From positions 1 through 64,000 of the forward strand of contig CAWIIV010000007.1 of the NCBI GenBank assembly GCA_963836205.1: 64,000 bases of DNA. The letters run 5' to 3'. The DNA is from an uncultured Acidimicrobiia bacterium (GTDB lineage Bacteria > Actinomycetota > Acidimicrobiia > Acidimicrobiales > AC-14). The notes beneath the pieces are model-generated. The model was given only the letters and a program-made list of their open reading frames with translations. It had not been told where the DNA came from and ran no database searches. Below, one piece after another: positions 32,228 through 38,266 of the stretch; the stretch's first letter is position 1; each line of letters starts with the position of its first letter. Made by a program: the position numbers and the translations under genes.

Positions 32228-34414
32228 CTAGCCTCCTCCGAGGGTGCCCGGCGTGGGGAACGGCGGGGACTCGTTGTTGGGGTCCCCGGTGGCGGTGGAT
32301 GGCGGCGCGTGGGGGGGACCAGGGACGGCTTGGACGGTAGTGCCCCCGGTGATGATGCGGAGCGGGGGAGGGGCGGGGGCCAGCTCCAGCCCTTCGAGCT
32401 CCGACGGTTCCATCAGCCGCCGGGCCCGCCGGCCCTTCATGGAATGTCGTCCCCACCAGAGGGCGAGGAACAGGGCCGCCCCGATGGAGATGGCCAGCCC
32501 CACGCCCGACGTGGCCGTGGAGCGGACGGTGAGCCGGGCCCGGCCCACGATGAGGTCGCCGTCGGGCGACTCCAGTGTGATGCGGATGGGGAAGGTGCCC
32601 GACGTCCGGGCCACCACGGGGAAGCGGTGGGTGGTGTTGAGCCGGGTGAGGTCGATCTCCAGCCGGGCGCCGCCGGGGAAGTCGAGCTTGTCGCTCTCCA
32701 TCCGCACCACCACCTTGACCGGGTGGCCGGTGTGGTTCTGGAACGTCACCGGGATCTCCCCCTCGCGGGAGGTGAGGGTGATCGACCGGTCCTGGGGCAT
32801 GACGATGCCGCCCAGCTGCTCGTCGATGGCGTCGCCCACGCCGGCCAGGTAGGGCTCCCGTTGGCGGACGGAGCGGAAGTCGGCCGACTCGGTGACGAGC
32901 AGTCGCTCGCCGAGGTTGCCCGACACCGCGTTGGTCGGCCCCAGGACGGAACCGAGGGCGTCGAGGCGGCGCCGCACGGAGCGGATCTCGTCGACCAGCC
33001 CGGTGAGGCTGCCCCCGGGGTCGACCACCGGCCGCCGGACGAGGGGTTCGCCCAGGTCGGTGGCGTCGGGCACGGTGGCGAACAGGTCGTCGAGGCCGAT
33101 GGCCGCCACCACCGGGTGGTTGGCCAGCCCCGCCCGGAAGGTGTCGAGGAACACCCGGTCGGGCTGCCACTCCCGGGGGGCGAGGGCCACCACGCCCCGA
33201 TCGTCGCCGGGCAGGTCGAGGTAGAGCACGGCCAGGTCGGCCAGCAGGTGGCTGGCCTGGAGGGCGGGGTTGGCCTTGCCTTCCTGGTCTGGGCCGGCGA
33301 AGTGGGCGGTCAGCCCCGCGTCGGCCGCCGCCCCGTGCACCGTCGACCGTTCGCCGTCGAGCTGGAACGGGCCGGTGAGGGTGACGAGCTGGTCCGGGAT
33401 GGGGCTGAGCCCGGCCTCGGTGGCCACCACCTGGTCGACGCCGTAGCGGCCGGCGAGCAGGTCGATCGAGGCCGCGTCGAGCGGTTCCTGGGCCACCCAC
33501 GTGCGGCTCACCGGCTCGGGCACCCGGAGGACCTCGCTCAGGGTCGTCGTCCCCCGCTCCATCTGCAGGGCGACCTCGTCGTCGAGGCCGGCGGCGCTGA
33601 GGGCGGGCAGGCTGACGGGGACGTAGGTGCCGCCGATGAGCGACCGGTCGGACACCGCTTCCCGGAGCGACGTGAGCACGACCCCCGCCCGGGGGTCGTT
33701 GCTTGCCACCAGGGAGGCCACCGTCTCCGGCGTGGGGACGAACGACACCGGCAGGCTGCCGGCGGCGTCGATGGCGAGCGCCAAGCCGGCCAGCTCGGTC
33801 TCGTCCGGGCGGCGGCGGGTGCCGTCGGGCTGGAGCGCGGGCTGGTCGTGGATGGGCAGGACGACGGCGACGCCCAGCTTGGGCCCGATGTGCTCGCCCG
33901 GCAGGTAGACGAGGTGGGTGACGAACTCGTCGAGCACGTCGAAGTCGTCGCGGTCGCGCAGCTCGACCCGAACCGGGTGGACGCCGTCGCGGAAGCCGAG
34001 GCCGGCGGTGACGGCCACCGAGTAGTCGCCGTTGGGCTCGGGGTTGAGTCCGCCGAGGGGGAACACCGCCACCGGCAGCTCCGGCTCGCCGAAGATGCGG
34101 TTCTCGAGCGTCTCCTGGAACTCCGACCGGAAGGCGACGGCGGCGTACACGCTCACCGCCACCTCCAGGTTCGAAGGCCCCGTCGGCCGGGTGACCTTGA
34201 AGCGCACGCCCCACTGCCCGTCGGCCACGGCCACGTACGGGGTCTGGGCCACGAAGTCGATCGCCCCCGTGCCCGTGCCCGTGCCTGTCGGCTGGGTGCG
34301 GGCGGCGGCGCGGGCGGCGGCGGCGGCGGTGGTGGTGGCGGCGGTGGTCGCCACGGCGAGGACGATCGCGGCGGCCACGAATGCGGACGCCGTCCGGCGG
34401 AGTTGCGTCGTCAC
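32228..34414 (-). CDS. DUF6049-like secreted/membrane-anchored protein
   Basis: Signal peptide, C-terminal ITLTSREG.IPVT.QN module and TM; conserved oriC-region position. Confidence 0.75.
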   Translation of the reverse strand: MTTQLRRTASAFVAAAIVLAVATTAATTTAAAAARAAARTQPTGTGTGTGAIDFVAQTPYVAVADGQWGVRFKVTRPTGPSNLEVAVSVYAAVAFRSEFQETLENRIFGEPELPVAVFPLGGLNPEPNGDYSVAVTAGLGFRDGVHPVRVELRDRDDFDVLDEFVTHLVYLPGEHIGPKLGVAVVLPIHDQPALQPDGTRRRPDETELAGLALAIDAAGSLPVSFVPTPETVASLVASNDPRAGVVLTSLREAVSDRSLIGGTYVPVSLPALSAAGLDDEVALQMERGTTTLSEVLRVPEPVSRTWVAQEPLDAASIDLLAGRYGVDQVVATEAGLSPIPDQLVTLTGPFQLDGERSTVHGAAADAGLTAHFAGPDQEGKANPALQASHLLADLAVLYLDLPGDDRGVVALAPREWQPDRVFLDTFRAGLANHPVVAAIGLDDLFATVPDATDLGEPLVRRPVVDPGGSLTGLVDEIRSVRRRLDALGSVLGPTNAVSGNLGERLLVTESADFRSVRQREPYLAGVGDAIDEQLGGIVMPQDRSITLTSREGEIPVTFQNHTGHPVKVVVRMESDKLDFPGGARLEIDLTRLNTTHRFPVVARTSGTFPIRITLESPDGDLIVGRARLTVRSTATSGVGLAISIGAALFLALWWGRHSMKGRRARRLMEPSELEGLELAPAPPPLRIITGGTTVQAVPGPPHAPPSTATGDPNNESPPFPTPGTLGGG

Positions 34415-35145
34415 GGCACCAGGCTGCGGTGAAGGACGGCCAGGTTGGACGGCTCCTCCCGGAAGCCGATGCGGACGTAGAGGGCCAGGGCGGCATCGTT
34501 GCCGAACTGGGTGTTGACCACCGCCCGCTGGACGCCCCGTCGCCGCAGCCAGCGCAGGCCGTCGAGGGCCAGGGCCCGGCCCACGCCCGTGCGCCGGGCG
34601 CCGACGGCCACCGCCAGCCGCTGGAGGTAGCCCTGGTCACCGGCCCGGCCGGTGATGGCGTAGCCCGCGATCCACCGGCCCCCTCCGCCGGTGGCGACCC
34701 GGAATCGGGTGGACGGGGTGGCGGTGAGGGCCTCCTCCAGCCCGGCCCGATCGAGCCGCCAGAAGGGGCTGAAGGAGCCGGCGTCGACGTCGAGGATCGT
34801 GTCGTAGTCGGCCGGGGCCGCCTTGCGCAGGTGGTGGGGGCCGACCGCGGGCCGGTAGGGAACGCCGACCAGGTCGTGGCCCAGGAAGCGGAGGTGCTCG
34901 TGGGGAAGGAACCCGACCGCGAGGAACGGGCGCTGCTCGCTGCCGGCCAGGGCCGAGGTGATGACCTGGGTGTAGCCCCGGTCGGCGAGCTGGTCGAGGC
35001 ATCGGAGGAGGAAGTCGGCCGAGGGCGGCGGATCGTAGGGGAGGGGGGCGAGGTAGGCCACGTGACCGTCGCCGCGCCACGGGCCGGCGCGGGCCCGCTC
35101 CCGGCCCCATTCCAGGACCTCGGTCGTGACGGTCATCGGTGCCAT
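34411..35145 (-). CDS. GNAT N-acetyltransferase
   Basis: YLQRLAV...RRTGVGRAL, VNTQ..NDAALALY..IGF. Confidence 0.88.
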   Translation of the reverse strand: MAPMTVTTEVLEWGRERARAGPWRGDGHVAYLAPLPYDPPPSADFLLRCLDQLADRGYTQVITSALAGSEQRPFLAVGFLPHEHLRFLGHDLVGVPYRPAVGPHHLRKAAPADYDTILDVDAGSFSPFWRLDRAGLEEALTATPSTRFRVATGGGGRWIAGYAITGRAGDQGYLQRLAVAVGARRTGVGRALALDGLRWLRRRGVQRAVVNTQFGNDAALALYVRIGFREEPSNLAVLHRSLVP

Positions 35146-35293
35146 CGAGGATACCGGCGGGCGACCGGAGAGCATCGGTCGCCGCCGATCGCCGCCCCCG
35201 CCCACCCCCCCTTTGGGTGTGCAGTCGTGTCGGTATATCCACCACAACCGCACAACCAACCGTGCGAACGGAGTTCCCGGAGACGGCGGTCGG

Positions 35294-35299
35294 TAGCGT
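35294..35299 (+). promoter_or_regulatory. Putative -10 box (TAGCGT) of a leaderless transcript starting at ATG 35307
   Basis: TANNNT 7 nt upstream of ATG, no SD. Confidence 0.5.
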
Positions 35300-35309
35300 T
35301 GTCGCCATG

Positions 35310-37267
35310 TTGCGTCCTGAGAACTGGACCAGACCAGCGGGTGCGAGTCCCGCCCGGGTAATCGCCGGAGAGCCCGGTAGCAGGCCCCGGTTCGTCGCCG
35401 AGAGGCGGCGGGCTGAGCGGGGCGTCAAGAGCCTCTTTGGAGGGAGCAAGCGTGCGGGCCGTAGTGCCACCAGGCGCGAGTCCTGCAGCCTCGTCAAACG
35501 CACAACGGGGGAGCCGAGCCGCTCATGTCACGGCGAAGGCCACGTCCGACCGACTGGCGTTCCGGACACGCCCCTGGTCGGGTCCCCTCGGGGTACGGGG
35601 AGCGGCACGTACGCACGGTCAGGTTCGGAACAGGAGAGACCCGTCTGCGCAGCCTCGTCAGCAAAGACCGCTCGTATAAGCCAGTGGTGAAATCGAGCGG
35701 AGCGCAGCGGGAGTCCGACGGGGTCGTAGTACCGCTGATCGCCGGGATGAACCCGGCGGGAGGGAAGGGCCCCGACTTCGGTCACGCCGGAGACGGAAGT
35801 AAGCGCCAGGGCATGGCCGGGAACGCCCGGCCCAACTCCCCCGGCGGGCAGCCGCCCACCGACAACGTGCGAAAACTCCAGAACCGGCTATGGGCTGCGG
35901 CCAAGCAGTCTCCGGGTCGCCGCTTCCACGCCCTGTTCGACCGAATCCACCGCAGTGACGTGCTGTGGACGGCGTGGGAGCGGGTGCGAGCCAATCGTGG
36001 CGCCGCCGGGGTCGATCGACTGACCCTGGAGGCGGTGGAGGACTACGGGGTCGGGCGCGTGCTCGACGAGCTTTCCCGTGACCTCCGTGCAGGCACCTAC
36101 CGCCCGTCGCCTGTTCGGCGGGTGGAGATCCCCAAGCCCGACGGCCGGATGCGGCCCCTGGGCATCCCCACCGTGCGCGACCGGGTGTGCCAGGCGGCAG
36201 CCAAGATCGTCCTCGAACCCATCTTCGAGGCCGACTTCCTGCCGACCGAGCTTCGGTTTCCGACCGAAGCGCTCGGCCACCGACGCCCTGGAAGCCATCC
36301 GGGTGTCCTTCCCCCGAGGACGGCAGTTCGTCTTCGAGGCCGACATCCGCGACTTCTTCGGCCAGATCGACCACGACAGGCTGCTGTCACTGGTCGGCGA
36401 GCGCGTGTCGGACCGGCGGGTGCTCAAGCTCATCCGCCAGTGGCTGCGTGCCGGGGTGCTGGTCGAGGGGGTGCGCTCCGAGACGGTCACGGGCACGCCC
36501 CAGGGCGGGGTCATCTCCCCGCTGCTGGCCAACATCTACCTGCACGCCTTCGACCGGTCCTGGGCCGAGTCCGGCACCGGCGAGCTCGTCCGTTACGCGG
36601 ACGACTTCGTGGTGCTGTGCACGACCCGCAGCCAGGCCGAGACGGCCCAGGCCAGGGCGGCGGCCCTGCTGGGTGATCTCGGCCTGAGCCTGCACCCGGA
36701 CAAGACCCGTGTGGTCGACCTCCGGGAGGGCAAGGAGGGCTTCGACTTCCTGGGTTGTCATCTTCACGCCCGCATGTCGGGCCGGTTGTGGGAACAGCAG
36801 CGGGTCATCCGCTACTACCTCCACCGCTGGCCGTCGCAGCGGTCGATGAAGCGGGCACGACAGCGGGTCAAGGCCCTCACCGGCCGGAACCGGGTCGGCA
36901 TGGAGTTGGAGGACGTGATCTACGACCTCAACCTGTTCCTGCGGGGGTGGGGCAACTACTTCCGCACCGGCAACGCGGCGAATAAGTTCGTCTCCCTCGA
37001 CCGACACGTCGTGTGGCGGCTCAAGCGCTTGCTCATCAAGAAGCGGGGCCGCAACCTACGGGCAGGCCAGGCAGACTGCTGGACCCGCACCTGGTTCCAC
37101 GGCCAGGGCCTGCATCAGCTCATGGGCACCATTCGCTACCCGAAGGCGTCGTAACCATGTCCAGAAGATCGTCGGAAAGCCGTATGCGGGAAAACCGCAC
37201 GTACGGATTGAAAGGGGGATGGGGAAACGTGCTGGCCTTGCCGGCAACGCGCCCCTGACTACCAATG
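35310..37267 (+). mobile_element. Group II intron inserted directly after the ATG of the HDAC-family gene
   Basis: 5' TTGCG; DI closing TCCTG(35315)/CAGGA(35631); DII; J2/3 CGA 35716; DIII 35719-35774; RT ORF; DV AAGCCGTATGCGGGAAAACCGCACGTACGGATT 37177-37209; DVI ending ACCAATG. Confidence 0.92.
35813..37154 (+). CDS. ltrA: Group II intron reverse transcriptase/maturase, no endonuclease domain; frameshift near 36248
   Basis: GAAGVD, RPLGIPTVRDR, SFGFRP, GTPQGGVISPLLANIYL, RYADDF, GFDFLG, LRGWGNYF. Confidence 0.95.
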
Positions 37268-38266
37268 GCTGTGCTGGTCGAGAGCTCGCCGGCGTGCAAG
37301 GGGCACCGTCCCGGCGGGGGCCATCCGGAGCGTCCCGAGCGGCTCGACGCGGTGCTCGCCGGCGTGCGTTCGTCGCCGGTGGCGGACGCGGTGGTGTGGG
37401 CCGAGCCCCGGGTGGCCACGTTCGACGAACTGGCCCGGGTGCACCGGCCGGCCCTGGTCCAGGGCCTCGAGCGGTTCGTGGCCGGCGGTGGGGGATGGAT
37501 CGACCCCGACACCGCCGCCTTTCCCGGCTCCTGGGACGCCGCCCTGCGGGCCGCCGGCTCCGGCCTCGACGCTGTCGAGCGTCTCGAACGGGGGGAGGCC
37601 GACGCCGCCTTCTGCGTGGTCCGGCCACCCGGCCACCACGCCACCCCCACCGAGCCAATGGGGTTCTGCCTGTTCAACAACGTGGCCGTGTGCGCGGCCG
37701 CCCTGGCCGAGCGCGGCGAGCGGGTGGCGATCCTCGACTGGGACGTCCATCACGGAAACGGCACCCAGGACGCCTTCTACGCCGACGGCCGCATCCTCTA
37801 CGTGTCCACCCACCAGTCGCCCTTCTATCCCGGCACCGGTCGCTTGACCGAGACGGGCACGGGTGACGGGGAGGGACTCACCGTCAACCTCCCCTTCCCG
37901 GCGGGGACGACGGGCGACGCCTACCGGGCCGCCTTCGACGAGGTCGTCGGGCCGGTGGCCGAGCGCTTCGCCCCCACGTGGGTGCTCATCTCCCTCGGCT
38001 TCGACGCCCACCGGGCCGATCCGCTGGCTTCGCTGGCCCTCTCCTCCGGTGACTACGGGTGGCTCGTCGCCCGATCCGTCGCGGTGGCGCCCGCCGCCGG
38101 CCGCACCATCGCCTTCCTGGAGGGCGGCTACGACCTCGACGCCCTCACCGCGTCGGCCGCGGCCTCGGTGTCGGCCCTCGACGGTGTCGTCCACGACCCG
38201 GAGGCACCCACCACCGGCGGTCCCGGGCGCGACGTGGTCGCCGCCGCCCGCCGGCTACATACCTGA
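37265..38266 (+). CDS. Histone deacetylase family (AcuC/AphA-like) protein; original ATG at 35307-35309 lies upstream of the intron
   Basis: [46 protein letters not shown]. Confidence 0.95.

Follow-up and report, generated by a model that had tools for sequence, protein, structure and literature searches.

How can a gene keep its beginning when a group II intron lies directly behind its start codon? The question is raised by a stretch of 64,000 nucleotides (nt) of DNA from an uncultured Acidimicrobiia bacterium (contig CAWIIV010000007.1, positions 1 to 64,000; the window), in which a group II intron separates an ATG from the remainder of a histone-deacetylase (HDAC)-family gene and itself ends in a second ATG. 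We found that this terminal AUG belongs to the intron. Comparison with copies in the same genome and with relatives in other phyla indicates that the intron probably represents a mobile lineage specialised for the first codon boundary of leaderless genes, with an AUG of its own at its end. The boundaries of the element, its pairings with the exons, a switch of the gamma pair and the association with an upstream TANNNT box are observed features of this lineage.

At the window locus the 5' junction is gcc-ATG/TTGCGTCCTG (window 35307-35319) and the 3' junction is CTACCA-ATG/GCTGTGCTG (window 37259-37276), where the slash marks the junction. The first-pass annotation, made from the sequence of the window alone, had placed the intron at 35310-37267 and noted that its removal leaves an intact HDAC-family open reading frame (ORF). 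This register is borne out by the other copies, by their junctions and by four empty sites. The features of the locus are as follows.

35294-35299, + strand: TAGCGT, a -10-like TANNNT box 7 nt upstream of the host ATG, present in intron-less orthologues.
35310-37267, + strand: group II intron of 1958 nt, delimited by Rfam matches, eight genome copies and empty orthologous sites.
35813-37154, + strand: intron-encoded reverse transcriptase (RT)/maturase, no endonuclease domain, frame split in two, intact in sister copies.
37256-37258, + strand: UGA in frame with the terminal AUG and 6 nt upstream of it, a position at which stops are enriched in related tails.
37265-37267, + strand: intron-borne terminal AUG, the last three intron bases, constant among copies whose 5' triplet varies.
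37268-38266, + strand: 3' exon, the histone-deacetylase-family gene from codon two, with G37268 as intron-binding site 3 (IBS3); Pfam Hist_deacetyl 299.8 bits, and orthologues.

Downstream of the intron the host ORF (37265-38266, + strand) has 333 codons and encodes a histone-deacetylase domain. The Rfam domain I model RF02003 is matched completely (35335-35469; 91 bits, gathering score 49) and RF02005 partially (35487-35594). The domain V/VI model RF00029 scores 37.8 bits at 37175-37259, just below its gathering score of 40, which is exceeded in the relatives L105 and L141.

The host genome, a metagenome bin of 25 contigs and 4.05 Mb that is 88.6% complete, holds eight copies, five at 99-100% identity to the window copy and three at about 90%. 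Homology among them begins at 35291-35308 and ends at 37267-37286. All eight have ATG or GTG immediately before the 5' junction, and all seven that can be followed to the 3' junction have CCAATG there, followed by unrelated sequence (L008 runs off its contig). Intron-less orthologues of the HDAC-family gene in four genomes of the same genus read TAnnnT-N7-8-ATG, then GCC or TCC, then GTG CTG GTC GAG, with a single ATG and no CAATG; comparison with intron-less alleles had been proposed in the first-pass annotation. The terminal ATG is therefore part of the element, and its exact removal restores the host gene. At the GTG site of L007, in a MogA-like gene, five orthologues keep a single GTG, showing that the 5' triplet is native and that the 3' ATG travels with the intron. 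(This and the other target genes named below were judged from their first residues.)

Relatives were found in 38 of the 58 genomes of the taxonomic family. The 36 distinct 5' junctions comprise 28 ATG, 7 GTG and 1 ACG, the last in L049, a decayed 5' fragment that is uninformative, and the 29 distinct 3' junctions comprise 25 CCAATG, 3 CCAGTG and 1 CCCATG; L015, from an unpublished genome, contributes one row to each count. A scan of species-representative genomes with the intact protein gave at least 593 relatives, 80 of which were kept. The traits of the lineage are present in 64 of these 80, in at least nine phyla, at protein identities from 93% down to about 52%. Host labels include Acidimicrobiia, Pseudonocardia, Embleya, Saccharopolyspora, Mycobacterium simiae, Solirubrobacterales, Chloroflexia, Gemmatimonadales, Acidobacteriota, Planctomycetota, Burkholderiales, Steroidobacteraceae, myxobacteria, Spirochaetia and Nitrospirae. 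Cultured carriers are among them, for example Embleya sp. NBC_00896, Saccharopolyspora hattusasensis, Nannocystis pusilla and Pelomonas dachongensis. In the 60 named loci the 5' triplet is ATG in 48, GTG in 10, and TTG and ATT in one each; the tails of 58 named loci read CCAATG (51), CCAGTG (4), CCCATG, CCTATG and CCAACG (1 each). Recurrence of the same boundaries at different host genes, which the first-pass annotation had proposed to look for, was thus found, with ATG and GTG the commonest 5' triplets. Among the 58 3' exons, 4 leave the contig at once and 50 of the other 54 are open for at least 60 codons; many begin housekeeping proteins. As to occurrence in the environment, 51-79% of the sampled words of window 35150-37450 are present in three DNA runs of one soil-metagenome study, and intron-relative contigs occur in four soil or rhizosphere RNA libraries.

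The recognition of the target could be read from the ribozyme itself. An alignment was made of 77 introns from 75 sites over their first 620 nt, and an unbiased scan of it sought the best-pairing column for each exon position. The elements of the ribozyme that are discussed here are listed in order along the window; EBS denotes an exon-binding site.

35306-35309, + strand: IBS1 CATG, covarying with 35524-35527; these four bases close the 5' exon, and the native ATG (35307-35309) is part of them.
35310-35314, + strand: intron 5' end, UUGCG in place of GUGCG; the sister copies L006-L008 have GTGCG at this position.
35518-35534, + strand: EBS1 hairpin GCCG-CUCAUGUCA-CGGC, in which EBS1 is CAUG at 35524-35527.
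35596, + strand: EBS3, C35596, partner of the first 3'-exon base G37268 and top column of the unbiased scan.
35716-35718, + strand: junction J2/3, CGA, whose gamma base C35716 pairs with the terminal G37267; CGA in the lineage, GGA in the outgroup.
37178-37209, + strand: domain V, starting AGC, within the RF00029 match at 37175-37259.
37214-37263, + strand: domain VI, with the unpaired branch-point candidate A37261 at -7, from a comparison of 33 sequences.

Exon position -4 pairs with column 35527 in 73 of the 77 introns through four Watson-Crick types (C-G 59, A-U 4, U-A 3, G-C 2) and five G.U pairs, and position -3 pairs with 35526 in 76 (A-U 62, G-C 6, G.U 8). Positions -2 and -1 pair with 35525 and 35524 in 77/77 and 76/77 introns, respectively. 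Because of this pairing with exon positions -4 to -1, the CAUG loop is identified as EBS1. The first base of the 3' exon pairs with 35596 in 74 of 76 introns, again with all four Watson-Crick types, which marks C35596 as an EBS3, overlooked in the first-pass annotation. No column paired with exon positions -5 to -7 above 0.64, the noise level of the 77-intron scan, and since these positions lack a covarying partner the lineage has no EBS2. The internal loop at 35494-35506, 13 nt next to the EBS1 arm, was considered as a site for EBS2 and rejected, its best pairing being only 0.64, with exon position -6. This loop is hypervariable between otherwise conserved copies, and no exon partner was found for it.

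Both ends of the intron depart from the GUGYG...AY pattern. The window copy begins with UUGCG exactly where the 90% subfamily (L006-L008) begins with GTGCG, and across the 60 named loci the first bases are GTGCG in 42, TTGCG in 13, TCGCG in 4 and GTGTG in 1. The AY end is absent: 57 of the 58 tails end in UG, and the remaining ACG tail ends in CG. J2/3 reads CGA in all 61 kept relatives in which it could be read; in the wider comparison it is CGA in 73 lineage introns and GGA in 10 outgroup introns, whose 3' ends, where read, terminate in C (...CCUAC or ...CCUACCUCAC). In a tree of 88 RTs, from which L042, L127, L145, L149, L151, L153 and L155 were left out for short or broken alignments, the CGA and GGA groups are split by a branch with a Shimodaira-Hasegawa-like approximate likelihood ratio test (SH-aLRT) value of 99, and the change in J2/3 maps to a single event. 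The gamma pair has thus been swapped cleanly, from G-C to C-G, and this swap fixes the terminal G as the last base of the intron. At least 12 switches between G and U are placed on the same tree for the first base of the intron, and UCGCG also occurs, which is unusual for a near-invariant position.

In domain VI, the 33 distinct sequences compared share one layout: two G-C pairs, an unpaired A and a helix of at least 9 pairs with many compensatory changes. The unpaired A lies at -7 in 33/33; L123 is mis-anchored and adds no pairing information. The first-pass annotation had rested on four structural points, namely UUGCG in the GUGYG position, the CAUG hairpin loop as EBS1, a gamma C predicting a terminal G, and an A seven nt from that G. 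The comparison supports all four: sister copies have GUGCG where the window copy has UUGCG, exon positions -4 and -3 show compensatory changes with the loop, the CGA/GGA split follows the type of 3' end, and A37261 is the predicted unpaired base at -7. Covariation of both kinds that it had proposed to seek among homologues, of gamma with the terminal base and of EBS1 with the exon, was seen.

The RT gene of the window copy is broken by a +1 frameshift, one extra base within 36244-36250. Intact versions of 446 codons occur in L003 and L004, and L006 and L007 are also intact, while L005 has a one-base deletion at 35872. The L003 protein (P0001, 446 aa) contains RVT_1 and GIIM only, and scores 416 bits against TIGR04416 (cut-off 300). 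The window copy would accordingly depend on protein supplied by another copy. The extra base lies in a 38-nt patch, 36235-36272, with 10 positions that differ between copies otherwise 99-100% identical; the patch of the window copy equals the 90% subfamily sequence plus the one extra base, and L002 carries the same base. Conversion by the other subfamily could account for the patch, as could a chimeric assembly, the genome being a metagenome bin. Elsewhere in the family, L041 (G022:C10) is a copy of 3506 nt with an insertion of about 1.5 kb in the RT gene, which carries a minus-strand ORF resembling an IS3-family transposase as judged from its translation.

What distinguishes the sites that are occupied? 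In the family, TANNNT precedes the triplet in 34 of 35 distinct 5' flanks, at a spacing of 6 nt in 17, 7 nt in 14, 8 nt in 2 and 9 nt in 1. In the host genome as a whole, TANNNT stands 6-7 nt before 662 of 226,129 ATG/GTG triplets (0.29%), compared with 31 of the 35 insertion sites. The box lies 6-8 nt upstream in 56 of the 60 named loci (6 nt in 38, 7 nt in 15, 8 nt in 3); it was not found in 4, three of which have cut flanks. It is a feature of the host, since it is present in the intron-less orthologues. Identical ribozymes are found behind boxes that differ in their middle bases and spacing, which excludes recognition of the box through base pairing. Pairing of the domain VI tail CUACC with GGTAG of the box was tried as a candidate and rejected: the middle base varies between U, A and C with no change in the partner.

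The box begins, with its first T, 12-13 nt ahead of the ATG. In the parts of the literature drawn on here, 73% of the primary transcription starts of M. tuberculosis are reported to have a TANNNT whose centre is 7-12 bp upstream (Cortes et al. 2013), and TANNNT about 12 bp upstream of the translation start is given as the mark of leaderless genes, present at about 19% of Actinobacteria genes and also in Acidobacteria, Chloroflexi, Proteobacteria and Spirochaetes (Zheng et al. 2011). Because the position of the box matches this signature, we infer that the targets are leaderless promoters. A different gene is hit at each copy, and most sites are N-termini of recognisable proteins, including a deacetylase, a PIG-L-type deacetylase, HIT, PdxS, 2-oxoglutarate dehydrogenase E1, RsmD, LigA, UvrD/PcrA, RibF, LeuS, TrpS, NadD, DnaX, MnmE and RsmI. 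An informative case is L004, inserted within a histidine-kinase gene at a Val GTG with TATCGT seven bases upstream; both the box and the GTG are missing from its orthologue. What the intron targets is therefore a sequence together with a promoter-like signature rather than start codons as such, and the intragenic site argues that the box is needed for insertion and not just for survival of the copy. The box is also present at L041, where only five codons follow. The proposal of the first-pass annotation that start codons form a genome-wide target class thus held in part: different genes are hit at each copy, but the start codon is not the target by itself, as the box, EBS3 and the intragenic L004 show. 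Two further observations concern the setting of these insertions. At the window locus a GNAT acetyltransferase gene (34411-35259, - strand) is divergent from the HDAC-family gene (37265-38266, + strand) and the intron lies in the shared intergenic region, and in L095, from a genome with another phylum label, an intron is likewise found at the start of an HDAC-like gene.

These features suggest the following mechanism. No more than five target bases are read by the ribozyme, four through EBS1 CAUG and one through EBS3, with no EBS2; EBS1 pairs with ATG or GTG and the base just ahead of it, and EBS3 with the first base of codon two. The TANNNT box 6-8 nt upstream would act as a -10 element that sets the transcription start at the start codon itself. 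If transcripts do start there, the 5' exon would consist of three bases held by three pairs, and exact splicing would rejoin the native start codon to codon two. The intron has come to end in AAUG instead of AY, with gamma changed from G to C to match the new terminal G and the candidate branch A still at -7. The box itself would be needed for insertion, read either by the protein or by way of DNA melted by RNA polymerase.

The terminal AUG may in addition serve the host. Among the 58 tails the last triplet is AUG in 53, GUG in 4 and ACG in 1; position -3 is only A or G, -4 is also C and U, and U-2 and G-1 are near-invariant. Of 50 distinct tails, 30 have a stop in the frame of the AUG no more than 21 nt ahead of it; the other two frames have such stops in 9 and 5. 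In two remnants an internal deletion makes a ribozyme fold impossible; what is left of each is the 5' end, a portion of domain V, then domain VI and the tail ATG, and the host frame behind it is open. One of them, L054 (G020:C76, about 110 nt), precedes the only ribF match in a genome that is 90% complete, and the other, L053 (G010:C255, about 164 nt), precedes a chain-length-determinant-like gene, as judged from its residues. We therefore entertain, with somewhat less than even confidence, the idea that the terminal AUG, often behind an in-frame stop, lets the host gene be translated without splicing. The evidence for a replacement start and for near-neutral insertion is circumstantial. Upstream of the tail in the window (37152-37267), the RT stop forms UAAccAUG and opens a small ORF that spans domains V/VI as far as the UGA at 37256-37258 and shares its frame with the host gene. 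The distance from RT stop to tail is 113, 110 or 107 nt in nearly all members of the actinobacterial subclade; other subclades have UAAUG at the RT stop but do not keep the frame of the small ORF. The small ORF might be a translational relay into the host gene.

Could the same data be explained by a more ordinary intron? A canonical intergenic intron would start at one of the GTGCG motifs at 35262, 35341 or 35452, end in AC at 37262 and leave the host ATG at 37265 untouched. The motifs are indeed present, CUAC occupies 37259-37262, and some outgroup relatives end in ...CCUAC. However, the copies share nothing upstream of about 35291-35308, so the GTGCG at 35262 lies in a flank that is not common to them, and the other two, at 35341 and 35452, fall within the conserved domain I model. 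What is more, CAATG stands before unrelated exons in the copies, whereas the orthologues have one ATG and no CAATG. The single ATG of the empty sites excludes an end at 37262 and already refutes this explanation, which the first-pass annotation had itself named as the refuting case; we regard it as having practically no chance of being right. A register shifted by one base, G-UUGCG...CCAAU, with insertion between the T and G of the start codon, gives identical DNA, because TG is shared by the exon triplet and the tail, and it would bring back both a G1 and an AY end. Under this register most members would begin with GGUGCG and not with the exact consensus GUGCG, the gamma C of all 73 members pairs with G and not with U while the outgroup has G in J2/3 and C at the 3' ends that were read, and EBS1 C35524 pairs with the exon G in 76/77. 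The homology to GUGCG and the gamma covariation settle the register at 35310-37267, nothing else fixing it, and the shifted alternative is very improbable. A stronger challenge is that the box is not sensed at insertion: many CRTG+N sites would be hit, and only copies behind leaderless promoters would persist, being transcribed, spliced and harmless. Group II introns are described in the portion of Gomes 2025 (PMC12584367) used here as lacking promoters of their own and needing host transcription, and most of the sites are real gene starts. Yet no copy without a box was seen among the near-identical, hence recent, copies (L001-L005 and L007 have TANNNT, L006 has TAGCGA), the intragenic L004 has a box where its orthologue has none, and five base pairs would permit thousands of sites per genome. 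We consider such selective survival rather unlikely.

The terminal AUG invites two further explanations, in neither of which it is translational. It could mimic IBS1, pairing with EBS1 once a leaderless transcript has lost its three-base 5' exon and so allowing cleavage at the 3' junction and release of an intron competent for reverse splicing. Tail position -3 does pair with EBS1 base 35526 in 75 of 77 introns, and a GUG tail is found in 3 of 5 rows with EBS1 CAC but in 2 of 62 with CAU (naive Fisher p = 0.002). This coupling rests on three phylogenetically independent contrasts, too few to test, and is a hint only; tail position -4 is mostly mismatched to EBS1 (A opposite G in 57/77), and the in-frame stops are left unexplained. 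We think this explanation unlikely. Alternatively, the last bases may be shaped by the needs of the ribozyme alone, the gamma' G and its neighbours, so that the spelling of a start codon has no function. The near-invariance of U-2 and G-1 is what ribozyme contacts would produce, but the restriction of -3 to A or G, at a tail whose -4 also accepts C and U, is not explained in this way, and the match to the target codon, the stop enrichment and the remnants point to more; this explanation, too, is a doubtful one.

Several observations weigh against the reading of a start-codon lineage at leaderless genes, or against parts of it. We infer the splice sites, the branch point and the transcription start from sequence comparison. 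The contigs from four soil metatranscriptome runs are all of intron-family sequence; since none of them reaches an exon, skips the intron or has a usable end, they are silent on splicing. The genomes are metagenome bins, in which repeats may be mis-joined, and the shared TG leaves a formal ambiguity of up to 2 nt in the register. A promoter scan found none upstream, the scan being one that needs an E. coli-type consensus, and the box could reflect the insertions that survived rather than those that occurred. As to the AUG, the evidence for its use consists of two remnants and of a stop enrichment that can be traced to no more than some four or five sequence contexts (UGA or UAA at 6 nt; UAG, UGA or UAA at 9 nt). 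No Shine-Dalgarno-like sequence was read before the terminal AUG of the window, and one tail among the named loci has ACG.

Taken together, the preferred reading of a start-codon lineage is wider than that of the first-pass annotation: it would describe a cross-phylum lineage aimed at leaderless gene starts, with an AUG that may serve translation or the ribozyme. A more ambitious combination would have a cross-phylum retroelement co-adapted to leaderless expression, whose ribonucleoprotein targets open complexes of RNA polymerase, where the -10 box would set a bubble in which the start codon of the non-template strand is single-stranded, a good fit for an intron that lacks an endonuclease, and whose AUG behind an in-frame stop keeps the host translatable, making insertion near neutral even in essential genes because splicing would not be required. 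As a whole we judge that combination improbable. If the lineage inserts as proposed, splicing and translation initiation would compete for one AUG on a 5' exon of three transcribed bases. Its presence in genes for DNA ligase, leucyl- and tryptophanyl-tRNA synthetases, DnaX and RibF, which are essential, runs counter to the common view that introns in bacteria stay out of housekeeping genes. A natural experiment on the definition of the 3' splice site is offered by the exchange of the gamma bases and the loss of the AY end, and short programmable recognition of gene starts could interest those who make gene-targeting tools.

How does the lineage compare with known group II introns? Full-text searches turned up no paper describing a group II intron that sits at a leaderless start or has AUG as its end; an earlier account in Michel 2007, in Simon 2008, in supplements or in the Zimmerly intron database is possible. 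Among plasmids searched with tblastn, the best relatives outside the lineage are introns of several kinds at 31-41% identity, apart from one 66% match in an Embleya sp. record. An S. meliloti locus was set aside from the comparison, its identity being uncertain. By its protein the lineage resembles classes D, E and F and varieties g1-g4, which have an RT/maturase without the DNA-binding and endonuclease domains and a IIB-like RNA; Actinobacteria, Proteobacteria and Acidobacteria are among the hosts of these introns, and some members come from myxobacteria (Toro and Martinez-Abarca 2013, PMC3552965, in part). The words 'start codon', 'ATG' and 'promoter' are absent from the main text of that paper (PMC3552965). 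The RT probably belongs among the endonuclease-less class F or 'g' varieties, a placement made by description.

An association with terminal codons is known from the IIB1 clade of Michel 2007 which, according to the sections of Gomes 2025 (PMC12584367) used here, consists of introns associated with the initial or the final codon of housekeeping genes; in groEL the insertion point is within the stop codon, which is made good by the G at the start of the intron, UAA becoming UAG. The terminal-codon association and the codon-restoring base are thus shared with the lineage described here. The same sections (PMC12584367) give that clade an endonuclease-bearing CL1 RT, a full EBS2 pairing and a domain I insertion of 300-700 nt, whereas our introns encode a 446-aa protein with RVT_1 and GIIM and no endonuclease, have no EBS2, and have 25 nt between the 5' end and the domain I core, to which distant members add only about 35-45 nt. 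Homing in the IIB1 clade is gene-specific (PMC12584367, compared by description only), in contrast to the many genes and the -10 box seen here.

In targeting logic the nearest system is that of the class C (IIC) introns, which, in the passages of Gomes 2025 (PMC12584367) and of Zimmerly and Semper 2015 used here, combine a short EBS1 and an EBS3 with the lack of EBS2, an unpaired upstream DNA feature and many sites. In class C the upstream feature is a terminator hairpin or attC; here it is a TANNNT box at 6-8 nt, and a terminator scan found no terminator-like site at window 35100-35400. Class C introns lie between genes, whereas this intron lies inside a coding frame. The domain V triad of class C is CGC, and domain V of the present intron starts AGC. 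The target modes of bacterial introns recognised in the part of Zimmerly and Semper 2015 consulted are long base-paired homing sites, terminator hairpins and attC sites; if our reading is true, a fourth mode would be a signature made up of promoter and start codon, which hundreds of genes in a genome carry.

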